Virus record (IMG/VR): IMGVR_UViG_3300009537_000089
Coordinates: 1 to 33,297 of that record
DNA from: a virus
Length of the DNA stretch: 33,297 nt
Direction: 5' to 3' (one strand)
This document shows, in pieces, positions 3,969 through 21,867 of this stretch. The position numbers and the translations under genes are program-made. Positions within the stretch are counted from its first letter, which is position 1. Each line of letters opens with the position of its first letter. The notes under the pieces were generated by a model. It was given only the letters and a program-made list of their open reading frames with translations. It searched no databases and was not told the origin of the DNA.

Positions 3969-5841
3969 GTTTTTGGTTAGGCCTTAATGCGTTCATAATA
4001 CCTTGTTGCACTTTTTCTATTAAATCCTCACCACTAATGTCGCCATTAACAGTTATATTTACAACAGTGCCTAGGCTTCCCATTTTATTTAATGGTATTA
4101 CAGCCTCAGGTCCAGCTTCGCCTATCTCAGCAATAGTTGGCGCAGTTACAATACCGCCCTTGGCTAACCTTGGTATATTAGGCAAATTAGGTAACGCTTT
4201 GCCAAATTTCCCAGCTTTATTTTTAATTTCATTAATTAAATTTATAAATTTATTAATTTTATCTATTATAAAGTTAATAATATTCCTAACAGTGTTTTTT
4301 ATAACTTCCGCAGCGCCAACAGCTACATTTTTAACACCCTCCCAAAGTGCTTTCCAAGCTGCTACAACTGGGTCTTTTACTTCCTTAAATATCTTTTTTA
4401 TAAACAAAACACCAGTATTAATAGCATTGCCAATCTTTTCCCAAATAGGCGTAAAAAAGTCTATTATACTTTGCCAAATTTCAGTCCAAATTTGCAATAT
4501 AAAATTCAAAGTTTCCTCAATAAACACTTTAAGTTCTTCCCAAATAATTCTAAAAAAGTCTGATACAGCTTGCCAAGTTTCACGCCATTGCGGGAATAAT
4601 GTATCAAGCAACATAACAAAAGCGCCAAGCACTAATGCTATCCAAATTTTAATAACAAGTAATATAGCGTCAAAAATCATCTTAAAAAATTCACTCATAG
4701 CAGTAAAAACAGTTATAGCCGTCTGTTTAATACTATTCCAAACGCCACCTAAAAAATCAGCAATAAAAGTCCAAATTTCAAGGGCTTTGCCTTTTATAAA
4801 TTCCCACTTAGCAACTAACAATACAATGGCTGCTATTACAGCTATAATGGCAATAACAATTAAACCAATAGGACTTAACAATAAAGTAAAACCTGTAATA
4901 ACTGCTGGCAATACTAATCCTAACGCGCCAACAACAGTAACCAATATTGCGAGCCCCGAAGCAACAGCAACAATGGTTTTTATAAGTTCTGGGTTTTCTT
5001 GCGCCCAAGCTGCAATTTTATTTATAACTGGTAATAACTTTTTTAATAAACTGTCAATAATTGGTAAAAATGCTTTACCAATAGCTTCTTTAGCTTCAAT
5101 TATAGTAGCGTTAAGTTCCTGTTGTCGCCTAATAAAACTGTCATTGTTTTCCTCAAAACCATTAATAGCGTCAGCAGATTGTTTTGTTGCCTGTATTAAC
5201 AAGGCCTCAGCTTGCACGGCACTAGCAATAGCGGGGTCTAAGTCCTTAAAACTTTGCCCAACCTCTAATAGCCCAGCGTCAAGCGCAGTAGCTTCCAATG
5301 CAGTAATTCTAGCGTCAATACCAAAAGCCCTAAGCGGTTCACTACTACCAACCAAACCCGACCTAAAAGCTTCTAAAACACGGCTAGGGTCTTCGTCATT
5401 AAACGCTGCAATTTTATTTGCCAGCACAATAGTTTCTTTTGACAAATCCTTAGCTTTATCACGGCTAAGACCCATTGGCACTAATAAATCCTGTAAACCC
5501 GCAGCCATAGATATAATTTCAGTTTTAGCGCTAGGCATTTCTTTTCTAACCTCATCAACAAAATTTAACATTTCGTCAGTGCTTTCACCAAACACTGTTT
5601 TAAACTTAGCCATTGCACCCTCAGCGACCGCAGCCTTTTGGACAGTGTCATTAATACCCAAACCAATGGCAGTCAATGCAGCCGTGCCACCAATAGCCAG
5701 CTTAGTAAAAGTTGGCTTCATTTTTTGCAGTTTACCACTAAAACCTTTTAATTGCGCACTGGCTTGGTCTTTTAATGATAAAATGATTTGTAAGTCGCGC
5801 TCGGCCATATTATTTATGTTTCCTTTGTTCTGCTTTTTCAA
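3955..5841 (-). CDS. Tail tape measure protein (628 aa)
   Basis: N-terminal core (AVAEGAMAKFKTVFGES...AAGLQDLLVPMGL...LRAFGIDA) resembles TP901-type tape-measure cores. Long helical/hydrophobic middle; follows the chaperone pair. ATG at 5808 (MAERDLQ...) is an alternative start just after the upstream stop. Confidence 0.85.
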   Translation of the reverse strand: MKKQNKGNINNMAERDLQIILSLKDQASAQLKGFSGKLQKMKPTFTKLAIGGTAALTAIGLGINDTVQKAAVAEGAMAKFKTVFGESTDEMLNFVDEVRKEMPSAKTEIISMAAGLQDLLVPMGLSRDKAKDLSKETIVLANKIAAFNDEDPSRVLEAFRSGLVGSSEPLRAFGIDARITALEATALDAGLLEVGQSFKDLDPAIASAVQAEALLIQATKQSADAINGFEENNDSFIRRQQELNATIIEAKEAIGKAFLPIIDSLLKKLLPVINKIAAWAQENPELIKTIVAVASGLAILVTVVGALGLVLPAVITGFTLLLSPIGLIVIAIIAVIAAIVLLVAKWEFIKGKALEIWTFIADFLGGVWNSIKQTAITVFTAMSEFFKMIFDAILLVIKIWIALVLGAFVMLLDTLFPQWRETWQAVSDFFRIIWEELKVFIEETLNFILQIWTEIWQSIIDFFTPIWEKIGNAINTGVLFIKKIFKEVKDPVVAAWKALWEGVKNVAVGAAEVIKNTVRNIINFIIDKINKFINLINEIKNKAGKFGKALPNLPNIPRLAKGGIVTAPTIAEIGEAGPEAVIPLNKMGSLGTVVNITVNGDISGEDLIEKVQQGIMNALRPNQKLDFI

Positions 5842-14281: not shown

Positions 14282-15634
14282 TTAAAATTTAATTATTCCC
14301 GCAGTGGGTTTTTTATAAAATGTTAGCATAAACGCGTCTGCAAAATCGGGCGACTTAGCCGTGCGCTTTTTTAAGTCAGCTTTAGGCTCAATACCAATTT
14401 GCTTGTCGCTATTAACTTTATACTTAATCCAAGTTAATTGTTGCCAAACACTAGTATAGTTTATTTTAAAATCTTCTAAGTAATTATCTTTTAACCAAAT
14501 AGAGCATAGCCAGTATAACTCAGCTTTAAGGTTGGCGTATTTAATTTGTTTACTTTTAGCGCCAACACTAACGCCATTAACTCTAAGCTTTTTTTCTTTT
14601 AACCTATCAACAACACCACGGCCAACCCCAATATCGTCAATGTTTACATTTTCAGGTTTTATATTATATTTTTTAATAATACGCTCAATCTCACTAACAT
14701 TAACCATAGTATCATTACTTTTATTATAAGCCGTTATTTTAGCAAGGTTATCCCACCTAACAACATAAACATTATAATCACCACCACCGCCAATATCAGC
14801 GCCAAGCATAGGCTCACCAACAGGCTTAACTTCCTTAAAATGCAAATCGCTACTAACTACTAATTGCCTAAAACCGCGTTCGTCTATTTTATCCTCTGGC
14901 GGGAATAAGCAGTCATAATATACGTCAAAAAATGCTTCGTTTTTCATTTCCTCAATAAATTCTTTGTCAAAGCCGTGATAGCCAGCTTTATTGTCAGCTA
15001 AGCTATGTTTATAATTATGATATATTTGCTTATACTTAGCGTCATTAGCACTGCGGTAAAAATGGTTGCGGTAAAACGGGTTGCCTATTTTAAGCAAAAA
15101 ACTTTCGCTATACTTATAACCGCCAAGCATACGCATTACTGTTGAATGTAAATTATCACCAATTAAGCTAGCCTCGTCCTGTATTATATTTTTACTGCCA
15201 AAACCCATCGCAGCCTCAATACAGCGTTTACTATTACGCGCGTCCAAAGTTAAGGTTTGCACACCACCACCCTTTTTAAAAGTTAAGTGTCTACGGCTAC
15301 GCTCACGCTTTAACCTGTCTAAAACCTCATTTTTGTCTAATTCAAGTTGCGTATAAATAAGCGGGTGTTGTGTCGCAAAATCTCTAATATAAGCCATTAC
15401 AATATCAGCTTTTTTTTCACTAGGCGCAAGTATAGTAAACTTTTCAGGTCTTAATGCAGCAACGCAAGTAACTGCACTAGCAATAGTTAAACTTTTACCG
15501 TCTTGCGTTGGCGCAATTACATTAACGCGGTTATGGCGCAAATTAAAAATCGTATCAAATAAATCCCTAAACCGAGGCGGGATTACTAGGGGTTTGCCCT
15601 TTACTTGGAATAGGATTTTTGTTATCTCGTGCAT
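14282..15634 (-). CDS. terL: Terminase large subunit (450 aa)
   Basis: Walker-A-like VIAPTQDGKS near the N-terminus. C-terminal nuclease-type acidic motifs (GADIGGGGD...). Position is before portal. Confidence 0.85.
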   Translation of the reverse strand: MHEITKILFQVKGKPLVIPPRFRDLFDTIFNLRHNRVNVIAPTQDGKSLTIASAVTCVAALRPEKFTILAPSEKKADIVMAYIRDFATQHPLIYTQLELDKNEVLDRLKRERSRRHLTFKKGGGVQTLTLDARNSKRCIEAAMGFGSKNIIQDEASLIGDNLHSTVMRMLGGYKYSESFLLKIGNPFYRNHFYRSANDAKYKQIYHNYKHSLADNKAGYHGFDKEFIEEMKNEAFFDVYYDCLFPPEDKIDERGFRQLVVSSDLHFKEVKPVGEPMLGADIGGGGDYNVYVVRWDNLAKITAYNKSNDTMVNVSEIERIIKKYNIKPENVNIDDIGVGRGVVDRLKEKKLRVNGVSVGAKSKQIKYANLKAELYWLCSIWLKDNYLEDFKINYTSVWQQLTWIKYKVNSDKQIGIEPKADLKKRTAKSPDFADAFMLTFYKKPTAGIIKF

Positions 15635-16115
15635 TTGTTAAAAGGTTAATTTTTTCAATGGCTTCTTCAATTTTCTCCTGTTCAGGCATTTTAAGTTCAA
15701 GCAAGTTTTGGTTAGCAAACAATTTATCTAATAATGTTTTTAAAGCTTTCATATCACCAGCTAAAACCTTAGCTATAAAGCTATGCAAACCACCATAACG
15801 GCCACTTTTAATTATAGCTTTTATTTCAGCTTCGTTAAAGCCACCACGCCATATTTCCCAAAGCACCTCAGTTTCCTTATGTCTATTGTCTAAAAATTCT
15901 CTTAGGTATCCCGTTCGTAATTGTTCCAGTTTGTTCGGCCAGTTATACTTTTGTTTATAATGCACTAATGTTGGTCTGCTTTTATATTTACACAACTTAT
16001 CCTTAGCCATAGCCGTTAAATTGCCATTATGCTTATCGTAAAGCAAAATCATAGTTTCCTGTTCCTCCTCAGTTAAATCTTTATAAGCCCTTTTTTTAGG
16101 TTTTGTATCAGGCAT
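15567..16115 (-). CDS. Terminase small subunit candidate (182 aa)
   Basis: Position immediately upstream of terL, with a 68-nt overlap to the annotated terL start. N-terminal helix-turn-helix-like region. No family-level motif. Confidence 0.45.
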   Translation of the reverse strand: MPDTKPKKRAYKDLTEEEQETMILLYDKHNGNLTAMAKDKLCKYKSRPTLVHYKQKYNWPNKLEQLRTGYLREFLDNRHKETEVLWEIWRGGFNEAEIKAIIKSGRYGGLHSFIAKVLAGDMKALKTLLDKLFANQNLLELKMPEQEKIEEAIEKINLLTNARDNKNPIPSKGQTPSNPASV

Positions 16116-16119
16116 AAGT

Positions 16120-16722
16120 TTATATTAATGTTTTATTAGTTTTAAAAGCTTCCTGTAAAATATGGTAGCCTAACGCGGGGTTTACTAAATTACGCAATAA
16201 CTGCCGTTTATCCTTAACATTATAATTTTTTAAGTTAAAACCATAAACTTCATTACGGCCAACAATTTGTCTATGTTTGCGCTCATCTTCAAGTTTAATA
16301 GGTGTAATCCAAAAATTAGTCCAAAACAAGTGGCGCTCTAATTTTTGCGCTGGTATTAACGGCTCATAATAAGGCACTACATTTTCAACAACCCACTTGC
16401 AATCAGCAAAATGTTTAAGCAATATTATTTCCTCATAAAGCTTCATATCAGGATATTTAGCCTTATACATTCCGCTAGTTACAGCCATTCGCCTAATATC
16501 ACTATGCGTTGGACAAGGCGGGCTACTCCAAATAAAATCAAACTTATCAAAATGCTTTAATAAATACTCGTGCGCGTCAGCAATAACAATTTCATCGTTA
16601 GGGAAGTAATCGCTATAAATATGCGCTATTTTTTCGTCATTTTCAACTGCGGTTATTTGGTGTTTATCGCCCCAAAGGCGTCTATTGCCACCAATACCAG
16701 CATATAAATTTAATATTTTCAT
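16120..16722 (-). CDS. DNA (cytosine-5) methyltransferase, unusually small (200 aa)
   Basis: Motif I LYAGIGG, motif II-like AVENDE, motif IV SSPPCPTHS, motif VI VVENV and motif X-like LVNPALGYHIL, in canonical order and spacing. Confidence 0.7.
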   Translation of the reverse strand: MKILNLYAGIGGNRRLWGDKHQITAVENDEKIAHIYSDYFPNDEIVIADAHEYLLKHFDKFDFIWSSPPCPTHSDIRRMAVTSGMYKAKYPDMKLYEEIILLKHFADCKWVVENVVPYYEPLIPAQKLERHLFWTNFWITPIKLEDERKHRQIVGRNEVYGFNLKNYNVKDKRQLLRNLVNPALGYHILQEAFKTNKTLI

Positions 16723-16730
16723 ATCCTTGA

Positions 16731-16802
16731 GCGCTAGGGTCGGTTTTGCACCGCCTCTACTGACTTGGGAAGCCAGCGTGCAACTAATTACACTACTAGC
16801 GC
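16731..16802 (-). tRNA. tRNA-like element (possible tRNA-Gly, anticodon CCC; non-canonical T arm, no encoded CCA)
   Basis: Minus-strand fold: 7-bp acceptor stem GCGCTAG/CTAGCGC, U8, D stem GTGT/GCAC, anticodon stem CTGGC/GTCAG and loop TTCCCAA (U33, A37). The T arm forms only if shifted 1 nt (GGCGG/CCGAC with one G-A mismatch, loop TGCAAAA). It is a GC-rich island filling the intergenic gap exactly. Confidence 0.45.
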
Positions 16803-17531
16803 TTATTTATTTATTTTACTTTTCAACTTAACGATTGGTATAGTTTTAGCAACTTCTGGGTCAATTTTATTGCCATTGTTATCCCAAATTTTAAGGTCTT
16901 TTTTATTAGGGTATCTATCATAGATTTTAAATCTAGCGGTAGCCATTAACTCTTGTTGTTCCTGTTTACTACAAATAAATTTAAGATAACAAAAATTTAG
17001 TCCGTGTAATATGCTAAGTTTATCACCAAATATCTTTTTTAAGTATTTAGGGCTAGTCTTTTTATAGCGGTGATATAAGCTAATAGGGTGTATAAGGCCA
17101 ACACCTTTTATATAAGGGAATTTACATTCAATAGTGCCAATATAATAATAACCAGCAGCTTGGTAGATAGTGCCAACCAACCCTTGGAAGCCCGCTGCAT
17201 AAGTATAGAGATACTTTACTTTATGGTCGTATTTTTTAATGACCTTTGCAGTTAAGTTAAGGAATTGACTAGCACTATTCTTTGGCGCGTCATCTACAAC
17301 AAAAAACCTGTTAAGTTCTAAGTAGTCAGCAGTAGTGCCACTGCCAAACAATTTTTTAGGTGTTTGTGCTGGCACTATTCCCCAGCCCCAAACTGCTAGG
17401 CCAATAAACTTATTGCCCTCAAACGCAGCCATAAAGTATTTGCTACTATTAGGCATACTAGGCGCGTGAGGGTGTAATTTGCAATATTCAGACGCTTGTT
17501 GTTTGGTTACTGGCCGTATTATCATAATCAA
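16803..17531 (-). CDS. GNAT/acyltransferase-fold protein, Mom-like candidate DNA-modification enzyme (242 aa)
   Basis: Pattern CKLHPHAP...FIGLAVWGWG...YLELNRFFV...PKNSASQFL...YLYTYA...GTIYQAAGYYYIG resembles the Mom/GNAT-like phage family as I remember it. Lies next to a ParB-like gene and a methylase gene. Confidence 0.45.
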   Translation of the reverse strand: MIMIIRPVTKQQASEYCKLHPHAPSMPNSSKYFMAAFEGNKFIGLAVWGWGIVPAQTPKKLFGSGTTADYLELNRFFVVDDAPKNSASQFLNLTAKVIKKYDHKVKYLYTYAAGFQGLVGTIYQAAGYYYIGTIECKFPYIKGVGLIHPISLYHRYKKTSPKYLKKIFGDKLSILHGLNFCYLKFICSKQEQQELMATARFKIYDRYPNKKDLKIWDNNGNKIDPEVAKTIPIVKLKSKINK

Positions 17532-18084
17532 TTATAATTTTATATAAAGCCTTGTTAATATCAACATCGTGCTTTTTTAATATTTTTTTAATTTGTATTA
17601 TTTGTGTTTCTTTTAATATAAAAGTAATTTGCTTTAAACCTTTTAACTCCTTTGGCACTGTTTCCTTAAACGCGTCCGCCCAATCATCGTCAGTTGGCTT
17701 ATCACCAAATATGTTGGCTAATTCAAGCTTATCCCAACCACTATCAGCTAATAAGTTTTTATCAAACAATTTAAGTAATTCGTCACTAAAACCACCCTCA
17801 ATAGTGCTTTTATTATCGGTTAATAAATATTCCTCTTTTTCTTTTTCGCTTAAACCAGTAACTTTATTAACCATAATATCTTTAACACCTAACGCTTTTA
17901 ATGCTTTTAAACGCCCGTGGCCACCTAAAATGACATTATTTTCGTCAACTATTATTTTGGCAAGGTAACCACTCCTATTTATACTGCCTTTTATTAAATC
18001 AACATTGTGCAACTTAGGATTTTTAGGGTGTAATTTTAATTTACTAATATCAATTTGTATAAATTTGTCTTTGACTTTTTTCAT
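17488..18084 (-). CDS. ParB-like (ParB/Srx N-terminal) domain protein (198 aa)
   Basis: IDISKLKLHPKNPKLHN...INRSGYLAKIIVDENNVILGGHGRLKALKALG matches the ParB-like nuclease-domain signature. Confidence 0.75.
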   Translation of the reverse strand: MKKVKDKFIQIDISKLKLHPKNPKLHNVDLIKGSINRSGYLAKIIVDENNVILGGHGRLKALKALGVKDIMVNKVTGLSEKEKEEYLLTDNKSTIEGGFSDELLKLFDKNLLADSGWDKLELANIFGDKPTDDDWADAFKETVPKELKGLKQITFILKETQIIQIKKILKKHDVDINKALYKIIIDYDNTASNQTTSV

Positions 18085-18102
18085 ATTTTATGTTATAGTA
18101 AC

Positions 18103-18183
18103 CACTTCCCCACTACTCTTCCCCTGTAAAAACAGCCTTGACAAGCGTGGTCAGCAATAGGGGAGGAGTAGAGTAGGGGAGTG
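18103..18183. repeat. Imperfect inverted repeat: pyrimidine-rich 23-nt arm and purine-rich 25-nt arm around a 33-nt spacer
   Basis: cacttccccactactcttcccct (18103..18125) pairs with aggggaggagtagagtaggggagtg (18159..18183). There is a 13-bp core stem plus CCCC/GGGG and CACT/AGTG segments. It fills the gap upstream of the ParB-like gene. Confidence 0.8.
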
Positions 18184-18291
18184 CTAAAACGCCATATTAA
18201 GCATTTTAAGCACTATTGCAATAATAATTAGTATAAATAATATTATAAGCTTATATACAACCAACCTAACAAGCCTATCCTCACTAAACAT
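18184..18291 (-). CDS. Possible 35-aa single-pass membrane peptide
   Basis: ATG at 18291 lies 1 nt after the stop of the upstream gene. Sequence MFSEDRLVRLVVYKLIILFILIIIAIVLKMLNMAF has one hydrophobic helix. No other support. Confidence 0.25.
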   Translation of the reverse strand: MFSEDRLVRLVVYKLIILFILIIIAIVLKMLNMAF

Positions 18292-19027: not shown

Positions 19028-20656
19028 TTATTTAGTAGCGCGGGTGTGTATAATCCTTTTGCCGTCAAAAATATACCTAAACCCGTCTAAATATATAATT
19101 TGTTCAAGGTCGTGTTTTATAAATAACAGCTTTAAAAACTCCTCGCGTTGCCTTAACGCCCTGTATTTAACATCGCCAGTTGATTTGTGTATAGCATTAA
19201 CATCACGCGTATAAGCTATTTTCCAATCAAGCTCCTTAAACCTTAAATAAAAGTCAGTGTGTTCACCACTTATTTTAAACTGGTTATCAAACTGTATATC
19301 ATTAAAAACTTCACGCCTAAACAAAGCAAAATTTAAAATACATTCAGTTAGCTTATATTTTAAGCCCTTATCAACCTTAATCCACTTATTGCCGTCGCTT
19401 TTATGGTATAACCTTTTGCCACGCCTCCACCACTTATGTTCATAGTGCATTTCGTTTTGGCCGTCAAATAACAACCCGCCAACAACACCAATATCTTCGT
19501 TATGCTCCAATACTTGAATAAATTTACTAATATCAGTATTTTCCGTAAATATAAAATCGTCATCAATTAACAATACATAAGGCCGTCTGCACTTTTCTAT
19601 TAAAAAATTACGGCACTCGGCAAGCCCTGTATCATAAGGCATATTATAACAAACAGGGTTCTTTTTTAAACCACGCTTGTTTAGGCGTTGCCATAAATCA
19701 ACATAGTAATTATAATCAAACCCCTCATCATCGTCAGCAAACATAATATTGGCCATAGGGTAGCGTTTAGCAATACTAAACAAAAGCTTTTCAACACTTT
19801 CCCGTCGCTTCATTGTTTTAAATATAATATCAATATCTTGCATTTCGCTACTATCAAAAATATCAACACGCCCTTGCATATCGACAACAGTGTGTATACC
19901 AAACCGCTCATAAAACCTTTTGCGGTCGCTTTTACGCGTCCTGTAATATAAATAGTTGCTATAACTTTGCCTGTTTTTAATTTGTATAGCTGGTTTATGC
20001 TCAACAATACAATCAGGCGTAAACGCTACTTTATAACCAGCGCGCTTAAAATCAATAAAAAAACTACTATGCTCATAAGCTACCTTGATTTGTTCGTCCC
20101 ACGGCACTTTTTTAACAGCCTTAGTCCTAGCTATAAAAAAATTAAAAGTAATATCGCAAGGCTTATACTTAAACCCTTTGTAGCTATTATAGCCGTTAAG
20201 TTCAAGCGGTGTGTAAACAAACCTATGCGGGTCGCGGTCGTTAATAAGCCCTTGATAATTTTTAATTACCTCACCCTCAATAATGCGCCCACCAATTAAA
20301 TCAAAGCCCCTATTGTTATCCAAAAAATTAACCATTTTGTCAATGTTTGCCTGTATACTATATTTAAAATCGTCATCACCAATAAGCAAATATTTTGTTT
20401 TAACCTTTTGCACTAACGCATTACGGCCAACACAAAGCCCACTATCATAAGGCAAAAAATGGACTTGGTGTCCAAGCTTTTCAACCTTTTTATAAAAATT
20501 ACGCTTTTCAAGTGGCATATCCTTTTTAGGGTTTTCGTAGCTATCATCAGCTATAAGTATTTTAATGTCAGGATAAACTTCAAGTAAACTATCAACGCAA
20601 GTATATAAATACTCATCGCGTAAAAATGTTTTAATTATTGCGGTAACATTCTTCAT
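19028..20656 (-). CDS. Tandem two-domain family-2 (GT-A) glycosyltransferase (542 aa)
   Basis: Two repeats of the GT2 signature: AIIKTFLRDEYL...ILIADDS...LLIGDDDF and IIFKTMKRRESV...IMFADDDEG...VLLIDDDF (DxD motifs). Confidence 0.8.
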   Translation of the reverse strand: MKNVTAIIKTFLRDEYLYTCVDSLLEVYPDIKILIADDSYENPKKDMPLEKRNFYKKVEKLGHQVHFLPYDSGLCVGRNALVQKVKTKYLLIGDDDFKYSIQANIDKMVNFLDNNRGFDLIGGRIIEGEVIKNYQGLINDRDPHRFVYTPLELNGYNSYKGFKYKPCDITFNFFIARTKAVKKVPWDEQIKVAYEHSSFFIDFKRAGYKVAFTPDCIVEHKPAIQIKNRQSYSNYLYYRTRKSDRKRFYERFGIHTVVDMQGRVDIFDSSEMQDIDIIFKTMKRRESVEKLLFSIAKRYPMANIMFADDDEGFDYNYYVDLWQRLNKRGLKKNPVCYNMPYDTGLAECRNFLIEKCRRPYVLLIDDDFIFTENTDISKFIQVLEHNEDIGVVGGLLFDGQNEMHYEHKWWRRGKRLYHKSDGNKWIKVDKGLKYKLTECILNFALFRREVFNDIQFDNQFKISGEHTDFYLRFKELDWKIAYTRDVNAIHKSTGDVKYRALRQREEFLKLLFIKHDLEQIIYLDGFRYIFDGKRIIHTRATK

Positions 20657-21213
20657 TTTTTAGGTTTTAATTTTTTAGCTATAACGCGTATAACAAGCGG
20701 GTTTTCACTTTTATAAACGGCCATATCGCGTCCCTGTTTGAAGTATAATATCTTAAAATTATTTTTAATTAACTGATGTAAAAGCCAATTCCCTCTAATA
20801 TAATTGCGGTCGTGGTTAGGCCAAATCAACGGCTTATCACCTAACGCCCGTGCCTCTGCCATAAAATAACCTTGGCTTTTTTCAATTAAGTATTTAATTT
20901 CCTTATTACTAATAGCGTGCAAGAAAAAACGGCTATAAACAACCTTGCCCCCGTCCCACTGTATATCAGGGCTACTAAAACTACTTTTATAAAAATAACA
21001 TTTGTGCGCATTTTCAGGTTTAATAGCGCTATCAATACCAATAACAGTGTGTCCGCTTTTAGCAAAGTAATAACTATCACGGCCATTACCGCAACCAAAG
21101 TCAATAATTGTTTTGCGCTTTTTAAGGTAGTGTGTTTGGCAAAACTCCGCAAAATCACTTGGCGCGCTTATATGCGGTTTTTTATAAAACGCGTCCCAAT
21201 ATTTTTTATTCAT
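20653..21213 (-). CDS. Class I SAM-dependent methyltransferase (186 aa from ATG 21213)
   Basis: Motif I IIDFGCGNGRDSYYFAKSGHTVIGID. The start at 21213 (MNKKYW...) is preferred because the longer ORF runs deep into the LicD-like gene. Confidence 0.75.
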   Translation of the reverse strand: MNKKYWDAFYKKPHISAPSDFAEFCQTHYLKKRKTIIDFGCGNGRDSYYFAKSGHTVIGIDSAIKPENAHKCYFYKSSFSSPDIQWDGGKVVYSRFFLHAISNKEIKYLIEKSQGYFMAEARALGDKPLIWPNHDRNYIRGNWLLHQLIKNNFKILYFKQGRDMAVYKSENPLVIRVIAKKLKPKK

Positions 21214-21781
21214 AAACCATTTTAATTTTTTTAATAAAACTTTTATCAATGGCTGGGCTACTACTGTCCCAACGCCAGTTTTTGTCAGGTAAACGCCAAG
21301 TCTTGCCATACCATAACTCAACATAACGCTCATATTGCTTTGGCACTTTAAACAAATTGCCACCTAAATTAGACAATACTTGCTCATCAAATAAATCTGC
21401 TGGGAATACCATAGGTATAATATCTTTTAAACCATTACGGCCACCATTAGCCCAAACAGCATTCCAGCGTTTATTACCAAGCTTATAATGCAAAAACAGG
21501 TCAATCTTAACGCCATAACGCGCAAAAGCTATTTCCATTCCGCAAGCACGGCTACCAAATATATGGCGCACACCAAACCCAGCTTCAAACATTTTGTTTA
21601 ATAACCTAAAATCAAAATGCTCCTCGTTAATACCAATATCAATATCCAAATCGTGACCAATAAAATTGCCCTCGCGCACTGCGCCTAAACAAGTGCCAGC
21701 CTCAAGCCAATAAGGCGTTTTGTAATCTTCTAATACTTCAGTAAAGTCAATTAGATTTTTTAATGCGTCTTTTTGGTTCAT
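21206..21781 (-). CDS. LicD-family (fukutin-like) phosphotransferase candidate (191 aa from ATG 21781)
   Basis: YWLEAGTCLGAVREGNFIGHDLDIDIGI matches the LicD GT(L)LGAVR...D-x-D motif. The longer ORF start would include the upstream terminator hairpin. Confidence 0.65.
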   Translation of the reverse strand: MNQKDALKNLIDFTEVLEDYKTPYWLEAGTCLGAVREGNFIGHDLDIDIGINEEHFDFRLLNKMFEAGFGVRHIFGSRACGMEIAFARYGVKIDLFLHYKLGNKRWNAVWANGGRNGLKDIIPMVFPADLFDEQVLSNLGGNLFKVPKQYERYVELWYGKTWRLPDKNWRWDSSSPAIDKSFIKKIKMVYE

Positions 21782-21804
21782 TTGTTTTAATGTTAATGTT
21801 TTGT

Positions 21805-21826
21805 AAAAAAGTCCCGCAGTGCGGAC
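21805..21826 (-). terminator. Intrinsic terminator (short GC stem + U6)
   Basis: Minus strand reads GTCCGCACTGCGGGAC-TTTTTTAC: GTCC/GGAC plus GC/GC pairs with one bulged G. Lies between the stop of the 95-aa gene and the LicD-like start. Confidence 0.55.
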
Positions 21827-21867
21827 ACCTAGCAAGCACTGTTTCAGCATTACAGGTTTTGCACTTT

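Follow-up and report, generated by a model that had tools for sequence, protein, structure and literature searches.

Among the systems described so far, the closest to the locus analysed here is the Mom enzyme of bacteriophage Mu, which moves glycine from Gly-tRNAGly to the N6 position of adenine in double-stranded DNA, the product after an on-base rearrangement being N6-carbamoylmethyl-dA (Silva et al., Nat Commun 2026, preprint 2023; PMC13219725). Both Gly-tRNAGly and GlyRS are required for this reaction; all three E. coli tRNAGly isoacceptors work, Gly-tRNAAla does not, and residues R111 and S124 of the enzyme are essential (PMC13219725). In the view of Silva et al., the phage scavenges whatever tRNAGly is available (PMC13219725). 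In staphylococci, non-proteogenic tRNAGly species (NP1-3) feed the GNAT-fold enzymes FmhB, FemA and FemB (PMC7826273). These tRNAs carry UGC or UGU instead of UUC, bind EF-Tu weakly and are preferred by FmhB (PMC7826273).

The DNA analysed here (hereafter named the window) is the 33,297-nt stretch of the IMG/VR virus record IMGVR_UViG_3300009537_000089, and the analysis was focused on positions 16120–18183. The locus resembles Mu in the family, the fold and both catalytic residues of its Mom-like enzyme, as well as in the expression of this enzyme with the late and packaging genes, which is predicted here. Moreover, the established co-substrate of Mu Mom is the kind of molecule that is encoded beside the gene in the window. 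However, Mu lacks a tRNA gene and can use every tRNAGly isoacceptor of the host, whereas the locus in the window appears to provide a phage-encoded, non-canonical donor fused to the Mom gene; the partner of Mom is Com in Mu and a ParB-like gene in the window. An initial annotation of this DNA had suggested a DNA hypermodification pathway not yet described. This suggestion had to be abandoned, since the Gly-tRNAGly-dependent modification by Mu Mom has been published (preprint 2023, Nat Commun 2026; PMC13219725). The chemistry is already known, and the part not found described is the linkage between Mom and a tRNA gene: no earlier description of it was found in the literature, and the Mom papers do not mention adjacent tRNA genes.

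Organization of the locus

The four consecutive minus-strand elements reported in the initial annotation, which encode a ParB-like protein, a Mom-like protein, a tRNA and a C5 methylase, were all confirmed between positions 16120 and 18183 (Table 1). The ORFs of the Mom-like and ParB-like proteins overlap by 44 nt, as had been indicated, when the TTG start codon of the former is used, or by 38 nt when the ATG is used. The first base of the tRNA is the base right after the TAA stop codon of the Mom ORF, and the ATG of the methylase lies 7 nt beyond the tRNA discriminator. The 182-aa protein that occupies the place of the small terminase subunit gave no family match in Pfam or PHROG searches. 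In the relatives, a small-terminase-like gene comes directly after the tRNA element; this gene on the 3' side of the element begins with a GNPKGRPKG-type sequence and is followed by TerL. The packaging and structural genes located downstream of the module begin with TerL, after which come the portal, protease, major head and tape-measure genes.

Table 1. Features of the window in and next to the analysed region.
Feature	Position	Strand	Evidence
ParB/Srx-like protein, 198 aa	17488..18084	-	phrog_620, other ParB-like PHROGs, PDB 5k5d
Mom-family GNAT-fold enzyme (by homology), 240 aa from ATG	16803..17525	-	Pfam PF25680, phrog_1384, PDB 8bv8
Mom ORF from alternative TTG start, 242 aa	16803-17531	-	ORF reading
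Non-canonical tRNA-Gly(CCC) gene, 72 nt plus discriminator U73	16730..16802	-	ARAGORN, Rfam, fold, covariance model
Miniature C5 cytosine methyltransferase, 200 aa	16120..16722	-	Pfam DNA_methylase, AF2 model, Foldseek
182-aa protein, place of the small terminase subunit	15567..16115	-	position only; overlaps the TerL start
Large terminase subunit (TerL)	14282..15634	-	phrog_2, E = 6e-23

Neither promoters nor terminators had been noticed between the four elements. The part concerning terminators stands, as no terminator-like site was present on the minus strand within positions 16120–18183. Promoter-like consensus matches do occur (e.g. an 11/12 match at 17558–17531), although their number (44) was barely higher than that obtained in shuffled sequences (28 ± 4.9). 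Because the region is AT-rich and the scan gave values barely above those of the shuffles, these matches are no evidence of a promoter. The arrangement is far beyond chance, since it recurs in related loci.

The Mom-family protein and its ParB-like partner

The resemblance of the 242-aa protein to Mu Mom and the GNAT fold, proposed in the initial annotation, was borne out. The protein scored 113.7 bits (E = 1.2e-32) with the Pfam family PF25680 (Mom), the cut-off of which is 27.1, its residues 4–193 covering positions 3–192 of the 202-position profile, and also matched phrog_1384 (E = 1e-30). A profile made from 39 homologues retrieved the PDB entry 8bv8_A, "Methylcarbamoylase mom", over chain residues 31–232 (E = 1.4e-23), and Mu Mom showed 25% identity to the window protein in a tblastn search (E = 1e-11). 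The two essential residues of Mu Mom, R111 and S124, align to R73 (in LELNR) and S86 (in KNSAS) of the window protein; S86 is invariant in the alignment with Mu, and R73 is invariant in the 39 close homologues. By homology, the 242-aa protein is a true Mom-family GNAT-fold enzyme, and by analogy with Mu it is predicted to be a glycyl-tRNA-dependent modifier of adenine N6 in DNA.

The 198-aa protein had been described as ParB/Srx-type, and this description was upheld by its matches to phrog_620 (E = 2e-29) and to 13 other ParB-like PHROGs, including phrog_498, a family of phage DNA methyltransferases that was matched in its N-terminal part. A weak match to the ParB-domain nuclease 5k5d was found in the PDB (E = 6e-4), and no Pfam or NCBIfam match was obtained at E < 0.1. 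In 56 related loci, tblastn placed a homologue of this protein immediately upstream of Mom. The ParB-like gene is a conserved partner of Mom, and its place in the module, as initially annotated, was retained. Accessory proteins of this type are known in DNA modification, such as DpdB with DpdA, DndB and the ParB-domain fusions to phage methylases. The likeness to DpdB/DpdA and DndB lies in the coupling of a ParB/Srx-type gene to a base-modifying enzyme; to our knowledge, no ParB partner of Mom has been described so far. As a speculation, the ParB-like protein would probably help Mom to engage DNA.

The tRNA-Gly element and its linkage to Mom

The 72-nt element had been regarded as cloverleaf-like. 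It is more than that, a tRNA-Gly(CCC) gene, according to ARAGORN, Rfam and covariation. ARAGORN called a single tRNA gene in the window, tRNA-Gly(CCC) at 16729–16802, and its score with RF00005, the Rfam model for tRNA, was 30.7 bits (gathering score, 29). The MFE structure is a cloverleaf (z = -4.45) and the covariance model R1 scored 78.6 bits. The determinants of bacterial GlyRS are G1:C72, C2:G71, C35, C36 and U73 (PMC10464925), and the window tRNA holds this complete set; CCA is not encoded. The T loop, UGCAAAA (G55), is not the canonical T54-Ψ55-C56, an extra A is bulged from the 3' strand of the T stem in place of a regular 5-bp stem, and the D loop AAUUAGUU lacks GG (G18G19). The anticodon loop UUCCCAA is canonical, with 7 nt and U33 present. 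The window copy itself could decode GGG, because it has this loop and passes ARAGORN and (barely) Rfam.

The fold is maintained across the family. In 102 distinct copies, 97.4% of the cells were paired, compared with 32–43% when the partners were slid, and compensatory changes were present in 18 of the 21 pairs, values which none of 500 shuffles reached. An independent MAFFT alignment gave 94.7% paired and 16 of 21 pairs with compensatory changes. This indicates that the RNA of the element is under structural selection. In the acceptor stem, all 102 copies had G1:C72 and C2:G71, and 97 of the 102 had G3:C70; the discriminator was U73 in 108/112. C35 and C36 were invariant in a 22-sequence alignment, with A37 conserved, and could be placed in 91 of 112 copies with a 7-nt anticodon loop; the remaining 21 cannot be drawn in that way. 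CCA was encoded in 68 of 113 copies. The GlyRS identity set is kept across the family, and charging with glycine would be expected from it.

The features related to translation (decoding and elbow) appear not to be kept across the same family. The size of the anticodon loop ranged from 5 to 8 nt, A34 was common, and U33 was found in 36 of the 91 copies (40%), with A or G at that position in 50/91. A UGC T loop, rather than UUC, was present in most of the Mom-anchored copies (every copy from the motif scan described below has UGC by construction, the T-arm motif being the query), and the three relatives that keep a UUCGA T loop also keep GG in the D loop. The family has an A bulge between positions 63 and 64 of the T stem, which falls inside the pairs that determine EF-Tu specificity (49-65/50-64/51-63; PMC3239215). 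ARAGORN called 5 of the 113 copies and rejected 108, and the threshold of the Rfam tRNA model was reached in 3 of 20 loci.

The linkage to Mom was observed from both sides. When the neighbourhoods of Mom homologues were surveyed for tRNA-like genes, as the initial annotation had proposed, the element was found in 29/29 loci (46–79% identity, downstream flank of 100 nt or more), in most cases no more than 15 nt away from Mom. Starting from the element, IMG/VR was scanned for 16 specified T-arm bases and 120 loci were returned, 114 of which had the acceptor stem expected of a real element; a Mom-family ORF was adjacent to 105 of these 114 elements. The linkage persists through different gene orders (Mom-tRNA, tRNA-Mom and ParB-tRNA) and down to about 25% identity of Mom, and overall it is strict and reciprocal in about 130 loci. 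Many Mom lineages are without the element: none was found in the 8 cultured-phage Mom lineages examined, the ninth one (Melnitz) has only an odd tRNA located 1 kb upstream of Mom, and 27 of the 40 Mom loci of a second metagenomic sample carried none.

Proposed role of the element and alternative explanations

We consider it likely that the ParB-like gene, Mom and the non-canonical tRNA-Gly form a three-part cassette for DNA modification at the start of the packaging operon, with the tRNA as private glycine donor. The tRNA would be cut from the polycistronic transcript, CCA would be added to those copies that do not encode it, and the host glycyl-tRNA synthetase would charge the tRNA with glycine, as the retained identity elements suggest. 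Mom would then move the glycyl group from the phage tRNA to adenine N6 of the double-stranded phage DNA, and after an on-base rearrangement the resulting N6-carbamoylmethyl-adenine would block host restriction; this chemistry is proposed because of the homology to Mu Mom and the conserved catalytic residues. A dedicated donor function of the tRNA-like gene, raised in the initial annotation, is its most plausible role, because the linkage to Mom is strict and reciprocal and the GlyRS set is kept while the decoding features decay. It is read as a private, non-proteinogenic donor because the elbow and T-stem features of the translation machinery have been lost. By analogy, such a tRNA would not be sequestered by EF-Tu and would spare the translational Gly-tRNA pool of the host. 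Mu Mom works with ordinary host tRNAGly and, therefore, a private tRNA is not chemically required. We lean, although only slightly, towards the broader proposal that these elements constitute a large unannotated family of viral non-proteinogenic tRNAGly, which would have co-evolved with Mom, receive glycine through the host GlyRS, have a shape that evades EF-Tu and the ribosome, and often lie inside the Mom frame. In a more extreme version, the element might stay on the mom message and be glycylated in cis.

The proposed donor would work like the staphylococcal NP tRNAGly, and the claim is one of similar function, not of membership in that group. Both are extra tRNAGly paired with a GNAT-fold glycyl transferase outside translation, and both show a UGC/UGU T loop (no Ψ55) together with changes in the D and T regions. 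The staphylococcal tRNAs are GlyRS substrates, and the phage element would be one too, by virtue of its determinants. The same selective logic, i.e. avoiding EF-Tu and sparing the translational pool, may apply to the two of them, although weak binding to EF-Tu was measured for the staphylococcal tRNAs and is predicted for the phage element. The staphylococcal genes are chromosomal and the acceptor is a peptidoglycan precursor, whereas the phage element is viral, its proposed acceptor is DNA, and it differs in the bulged T stem, the frequent loss of U33 and its frequent location inside the ORF of the enzyme. Shared descent is unlikely and convergence is to be expected. The tRNA-like structures of plant viruses (e.g. 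TYMV) are aminoacylated at the 3' end of the messenger; they are pseudoknotted mimics at the 3' terminus of RNA virus genomes and take part in replication and translation. The phage element is also tRNA-shaped, potentially chargeable and part of a coding RNA (mostly inside the Mom ORF), but it is a true cloverleaf, lies in an operon of a DNA phage and is followed by further genes.

That Mom depends on a tRNA was established only recently and for one enzyme, that of Mu, with host tRNAs, and the present finding suggests that many phages solve the supply of the donor differently, by carrying their own tRNA. If this is true, the element would add a second dedicated non-translational tRNAGly to the one case known, that of the staphylococcal cell-wall tRNAs, and it would be the first one encoded by a virus and the first one dedicated to DNA modification. 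Whether competition with EF-Tu limits tRNA-dependent modification, which parts of the tRNA are read by Mom, and whether the staphylococcal cell-wall strategy is a general evolutionary solution become questions that can be tested. In standard pipelines (ARAGORN, and Rfam at its gathering threshold) more than 90% of these genes escape notice, and they are rendered by gene callers as Mom tails; a new RNA family could be started from the covariance model obtained in this analysis. Orthogonal tools for site-specific aminoacylation of DNA might be developed from matched Mom/tRNA pairs.

Phages commonly carry tRNA genes, and the window copy, a cloverleaf in a phage operon with the standard loop UUCCCAA that both ARAGORN and Rfam recognize as tRNA-Gly(CCC), might be an ordinary one serving GGG/GGA codons, its adjacency to Mom being inherited gene order. 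We find this quite unlikely, since GGG represents only 10% of the Gly codons in the window, a mismatch in codon usage, and the element is single-copy, tied to one enzyme gene and outside any tRNA cluster. Its family, moreover, mostly fails the detectors (108/113 copies rejected by ARAGORN, Rfam reached in 3/20), with U33 in 40% of the copies, an anticodon loop of varying size in which A34 is common, loss of TΨC and G18G19, and the T-stem bulge, and the linkage to Mom outlasts changes of gene order and divergence to about 25% Mom identity. An unlikely explanation is that of a tRNA-shaped processing or coupling signal in the mRNA that is never aminoacylated and would act either as a structured spacer or as a site cut by RNase P/Z; a processing signal had also been suggested in the initial annotation. 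Of 93 relatives, 71 have no stop codon in the Mom frame across the element, and the phase is the same in all of them; this phase is open in 97% of the copies versus 78% expected, the other two phases being as expected, and in 57 of 85 loci the start of the next gene is found between -25 and +10 nt from the Mom-frame stop. In those 71 relatives the element is, therefore, part of the translated sequence as well, and it could serve in translational coupling or mRNA processing instead; possible roles include separating or stabilising the mom and terminase messages and limiting the expression of toxic Mom. However, processing needs only the acceptor/T-arm shape, and not invariant G1:C72 and C2:G71, U73, C35-C36-A37 or an encoded CCA (60%), which taken together make up the GlyRS determinants and the end used in aminoacylation, and a signal of this kind would not explain why the element is linked exclusively to an enzyme known to use Gly-tRNAGly as co-substrate. 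Integration into tRNA genes is frequent among temperate phages, which then carry a portion of the tRNA sequence, and the element might likewise be left over from, or be a target for, site-specific integration, as an attP-type copy of the tRNA-Gly gene of a host. This is extremely unlikely, given that the copies cover the full length, differ strongly from one another and show compensation in all four stems, that they lie between the mom and terminase genes with no adjoining integrase, and that the T-arm motif is near-absent in cellular genomes (9 real elements among 120 motif matches in 596 Gb).

The preferred explanation, a cassette with a private glycine donor, does not include the methylase. 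The 200-aa ORF had been annotated as a C5 methyltransferase, in agreement with its match to the Pfam family DNA_methylase (PF00145; 32.1 bits versus a cut-off of 22), which covers residues 1–77 only. An AF2 model (pLDDT 84, pTM 0.83), compared with the PDB by Foldseek, matched the C5 cores of DNMT2, DNMT3A, MET1, M.HaeIII and M.HhaI (TMq 0.4–0.47, E = 2e-5 to 1e-3). The TM-scores normalised to target length were low (0.1–0.35), because the targets carry a target-recognition domain (TRD), expected between motifs VIII and IX, that appears to have no counterpart in the 200-aa protein. The motifs PC (SSPPCPTHS), ENV (VVENV) and, near the C terminus, N.VNP were read from the sequence, with only about 40 residues between the RH.FW region and the C-terminal motif. 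At least 8000 homologues of 195–220 aa were found, and the methylase can be assigned by homology to a very large stand-alone family of ~200-aa proteins. Its inclusion in a composite module, as initially annotated, would imply that all four genes constitute one hypermodification pathway, in which the tRNA serves the methylase or a joint product. The tight spacing, the lack of a terminator-like site between the genes, the DNMT2 tRNA methyltransferases as best PDB sequence matches of the methylase and the presence of a methylase homologue near the cassette of a near relative (L011) are consistent with such a pathway, which we nevertheless regard as very unlikely. Essentially all relatives lack a counterpart of the methylase at this position; in L011, the only relative with a homologue, this gene is located upstream of the ParB-like gene. 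The size of the free-standing family also argues against a joint pathway, and the window tRNA has A38 and not the C38 targeted by DNMT2. The methylase is an adjacent independent gene with a predicted anti-restriction role, rather than a conserved member of the module.

The Mom cassette and its neighbouring genes

The window is a siphovirus-like phage fragment of 33 kb in which the minus strand holds nearly all of the genes, running from Rad52/Gp157 recombination genes through a glycosyltransferase/LicD/methyltransferase cluster to the cassette, and from there to TerL, portal, protease, major head protein and tape-measure protein. The four consecutive minus-strand elements described in the initial annotation were all present where it had placed them, and no terminator was found between them on the minus strand, as it had stated. 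Promoter-like matches occur, in numbers no higher than expected by chance for sequence this AT-rich. When cultured phages were searched with 7 kb of the window at the nucleotide level, the sole match was a 300-nt methylase stretch in Flavobacterium phages, indicating that there is no close cultured relative.

The four elements in the window
Feature	Position	Strand	Remarks
ParB-like ORF	17488-18084	minus	198 aa
Mom ORF	16803-17531 (TTG start) or 16803-17525 (ATG start)	minus	overlap with ParB-like ORF 44 or 38 nt
tRNA gene	16802-16730	minus	starts at first base after Mom TAA stop; discriminator 7 nt before next ATG
Methylase ORF	16120-16722	minus	200 aa

The 242-aa protein, previously described as Mom-like, proved to be a true member of the Mom family. 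It matched Pfam PF25680 with 113.7 bits (cut-off 27.1) and the PHROG 'Mom-like DNA modification protein' (E 1e-30), and a profile built from 39 homologues matched the crystal structure of Mu Mom, 8bv8 (E 1.4e-23). In the alignment, R111 and S124, which are essential in Mu Mom (Silva et al., PMC13219725), corresponded to the invariant R73 and S86 of the window protein. The 198-aa protein is ParB/Srx-like (phrog_620, E 2e-29), with a weak match in the PDB to a ParB-domain nuclease. Its gene is a conserved partner of Mom, located immediately upstream of it in 56 loci, which supports its proposed inclusion in the module.

The methylase, which had also been counted as a member of the module, did not retain this place. 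The Pfam match of the 200-aa protein was confined to residues 1-77, and Foldseek searches with its AF2 model (pLDDT 84) retrieved DNMT2, DNMT3A, MET1, M.HaeIII and M.HhaI. It is a C5 methyltransferase catalytic core in which the target-recognition domain is almost absent, and its family comprises at least 8000 proteins of 195-220 aa from phages and bacteria that are similarly short and nearly devoid of this domain. In the relatives of the cassette the tRNA element is followed directly by a small-terminase-like gene, without an intervening methylase, and only one relative (locus L011) has a methylase homologue, which lies upstream of the ParB-like gene. The methylase is thus a bystander to the Mom/tRNA cassette. 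DNMT2-like methylation of the tRNA was also considered, the closest solved sequences being DNMT2 tRNA methyltransferases; it was discarded, since position 38 of the window tRNA is A and conservation of the module does not extend to the methylase.

Two other features were observed on the minus strand upstream of the cassette. A long imperfect hairpin (CCCCUACUCU...AGAGUAGUGGGG; MFE -39.5 kcal/mol, z = -3.6) occupies positions 18100-18185, in the 208-nt gap immediately upstream of the ParB-like start, and may be a regulatory structure or a terminator heading the cassette. Immediately upstream of the cassette, positions 19028-21850 encode a protein of 542 aa carrying two GT2 glycosyltransferase domains, together with a LicD-family and a SAM methyltransferase-like protein, a cluster for sugar or phosphocholine-type modification that is unusual in the late region of a phage.

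Linkage of the tRNA element to Mom

The initial annotation had proposed a survey of the gene neighbourhoods of Mom homologues, and 36 loci with Mom relatives at 46-85% identity were collected from IMG/VR and JGI metagenomes. ARAGORN called a tRNA-Gly(UCC) in only 3/36 of them, which first suggested that the element does not recur. This was discarded when the DNA past the Mom stop was read directly: wherever the flank reached 100 nt or more (29/29 loci), a tRNA-like element was present beside Mom. Its 7-bp acceptor stem was perfect in every case, and in most loci no more than 15 nt separated the element from Mom.

The linkage was also analysed from the side of the element, by searching IMG/VR for 16 specified T-arm bases (GGCGGTGCAANNCCGACC), which returned at least 120 loci. 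Among the 120 IMG/VR matches listed, 114 had the expected acceptor stem and the other 6, lacking it, were chance matches. An adjacent Mom-family ORF was found for 105 of these 114 listed elements; in 8 of those without Mom the contig end cuts off the expected Mom side, and in one (locus L147) a methylase occupies the expected Mom position. When 596 Gb of cellular genomes were scanned for the same motif, 9 of 120 matches were real elements and the rest were chance, so that the T-arm motif is a viral feature and not one of cellular tRNAs. Gene order varies, with the tRNA immediately before Mom in one clade and ParB followed by the tRNA in one MAG contig; the linkage therefore outlasts rearrangement.

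In the reversed-order second Mom clade (L075, IMGVR_UViG_3300022746_000280, with relatives L286-L298 and L316; also L041, L080, L109 and L137), 2-74 nt separate the element from the Mom gene downstream, with which it is in frame, and a Phycisphaerae MAG protein (P0080) carries at its N terminus the same encoded 'DGGASPT' stretch. Tandem double copies occur in two phage contigs (L068:338-402 and 407-472; L048:4378-4444 and 4454-4519). Three Bacillota MAG contigs (L182, L207 and L254) have perfect elements with no Mom match to the clade HMM within 1.3 kb; either their Mom is highly divergent or the element has another partner enzyme. The short contig L147 (1554 nt), which contains no Mom, carries a full-size C5 methyltransferase, next to it the element and after that TerL, and this may be a second instance of a methylase adjoining the element.

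Structure, conservation and reading frame of the element

Alignment of 22 distinct copies (MAFFT) gave a cloverleaf that was 94.7% paired, with compensatory changes in 16/21 pairs. In a covariance-model alignment of 102 distinct copies pairing reached 97.4%, against 32-43% with slid partners, 18/21 pairs were compensatory, and none of 500 shuffles attained the observed values. The bacterial GlyRS identity set (PMC10464925) was taken as reference for conservation: G1:C72 and C2:G71 were present in 102/102 copies, G3:C70 in 97/102 and U73 in 108/112. C35-C36-A37 of the anticodon loop are conserved, acceptor pairs 4-7 vary freely, and 68/113 copies encode CCA behind the discriminator. Four elements (L006, L065, L082 and L104) have A73 in place of U73; published work associates A73 with α2-type and U73 with α2β2-type GlyRS, and the discriminator of the element may track the GlyRS type of the host.

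In the T loop, UGCAA or GGCAG takes the place of the expected UUCGA, the D loop lacks G18G19, and the 3' strand of the T stem has a bulged extra A between positions 63 and 64, a site that falls within the three base pairs setting EF-Tu affinity (PMC3239215). U33 was present in 36 of the 91 copies drawable with a 7-nt anticodon loop; a further 21 copies had loops of 5, 6 or 8 nt or no recognisable anticodon arm, and some (63-68 nt) had a shortened D arm. The elbow covaries in the 22-copy alignment: the three copies with a UUCGA T loop (L001, L021 and L026) all have the D-loop GG, which occurs in 2/19 of the others. ARAGORN called 5/113 copies, all as Gly, and the Rfam tRNA model attained its gathering score in 3/20 element-bearing loci, with no match to any other Rfam family. 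What is conserved is the GlyRS identity set, whereas the features needed for translation are not.

A role of the element in translation is unlikely. It is the sole tRNA gene in the window, and codon supplementation was rejected because GGG, at 10% of the Gly codons, is rare there. Residual decoding by the window copy is possible, because this copy is among the most tRNA-like, with U33, a 7-nt loop and a sequence that passes the detectors. In the Mom frame the T arm reads G-G-A-x-P-T, and in the output of gene callers the element appears as a C-terminal extension of Mom (for example P0035 and P0089) or, in the reversed-order clade, as an N-terminal one (P0080). The conservation of this peptide is no greater than the RNA imposes; the 'GGAxPT' peptide was rejected as a functional entity, since its amino-acid conservation mirrors the RNA and the stem changes are compensatory and non-conservative.

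The Mom frame is open across the whole element in 71/93 distinct relatives (for example L001:1542-1633, L002:998-1086 and L040), with one constant phase. This phase is open in 97% of the 73-nt copies versus 78% expected from column frequencies, and the other two phases are as expected. The read-through ORF stops 2-40 nt past the element and in most cases overlaps the beginning of the gene that follows; in 57/85 loci the stop falls at -25 to +10 nt of that gene's start, mostly with overlap. We read the open frame as translational coupling kept across an embedded RNA gene, and competition between translation and excision of the tRNA possibly restricts Mom expression. The exceptions are the window and its nearest relatives, where the stop lies at -3 to +7 of the element; in the window it directly abuts the element (16803-16805).

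Proposed role and clade distribution

The glycine that Mu Mom attaches to N6 of adenine in dsDNA comes from Gly-tRNAGly (Silva et al., bioRxiv 2023; Nat Commun 2026, PMC13219725), and on-base rearrangement of the glycyl group gives N6-carbamoylmethyl-dA. The enzyme accepts all three E. coli tRNAGly isoacceptors and refuses Gly-tRNAAla, and Silva et al. concluded that Mu scavenges a host tRNA (PMC13219725). The simplest reading is that the element would be a dedicated glycine donor for Mom: host GlyRS would charge it, Mom would use the charged form, and the element would have been freed from EF-Tu and ribosome constraints or selected for escape from them. This proposal combines the Mom family membership, RNA structure, conservation pattern and linkage described here with the published Mu Mom chemistry, GlyRS and EF-Tu determinants and staphylococcal tRNA properties; processing of the element, the nature of the adduct on the DNA and whatever part the ParB-like protein may play are points that we infer.

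The role proposed here would mirror that of the staphylococcal non-proteogenic tRNAGly, in which UGC or UGU replaces UUC, which binds EF-Tu poorly and is preferred by FmhB, a GNAT-fold Fem transferase (PMC7826273); evasion of EF-Tu by the element is likewise presumed. S. aureus and S. epidermidis were reported to be the only species from which such tRNAs were known (PMC7826273). The idea of a tRNA donor in the initial annotation was sound and agrees with established Mu Mom chemistry, but its description as a pathway not yet described fails, as that chemistry was published in 2023 and 2026. Both tRNA-dependent DNA modification by Mom and a dedicated non-proteinogenic tRNAGly are already known. 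Silva et al., who annotated contigs by Prokka (PMC13219725), mention neither tRNA genes adjoining mom homologues nor ParB partners or gene neighbourhoods in the preprint or the published version. In the searchable literature, which was not covered exhaustively, we found no report of a tRNA gene adjoining mom, nor of a non-canonical tRNAGly family that is widespread, linked to Mom and accompanied by a ParB-like gene.

Neither the covariance model, run with filters off, nor ARAGORN showed the element in Mu, Polaribacter P12002L, Roseobacter CRP-902, Edwardsiella ET-ABTNL-9, Psychrobacter Y8A, Enterococcus Stockyards, Corynebacterium Darwin and a faecal contig. As these eight cultured-phage lineages carrying distant Mom genes lack it, the element is clade-specific and not universal, which is consistent with Mu coping on host tRNA. 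In a second metagenomic sample 27/40 loci were without the element (second-clade loci were gathered with a second-clade Mom as search seed). In a ninth cultured lineage, Methylophilales phage Melnitz (MZ577097), there is only an odd tRNA (L158:1998-2066), which lies within a CDS annotated as hypothetical, 1 kb upstream of the Mom homologue of this phage. The ARAGORN call is Trp(cca), placing the anticodon at position 33, and Gly(UCC) is an equally good reading of its loop, AUUCCAA.
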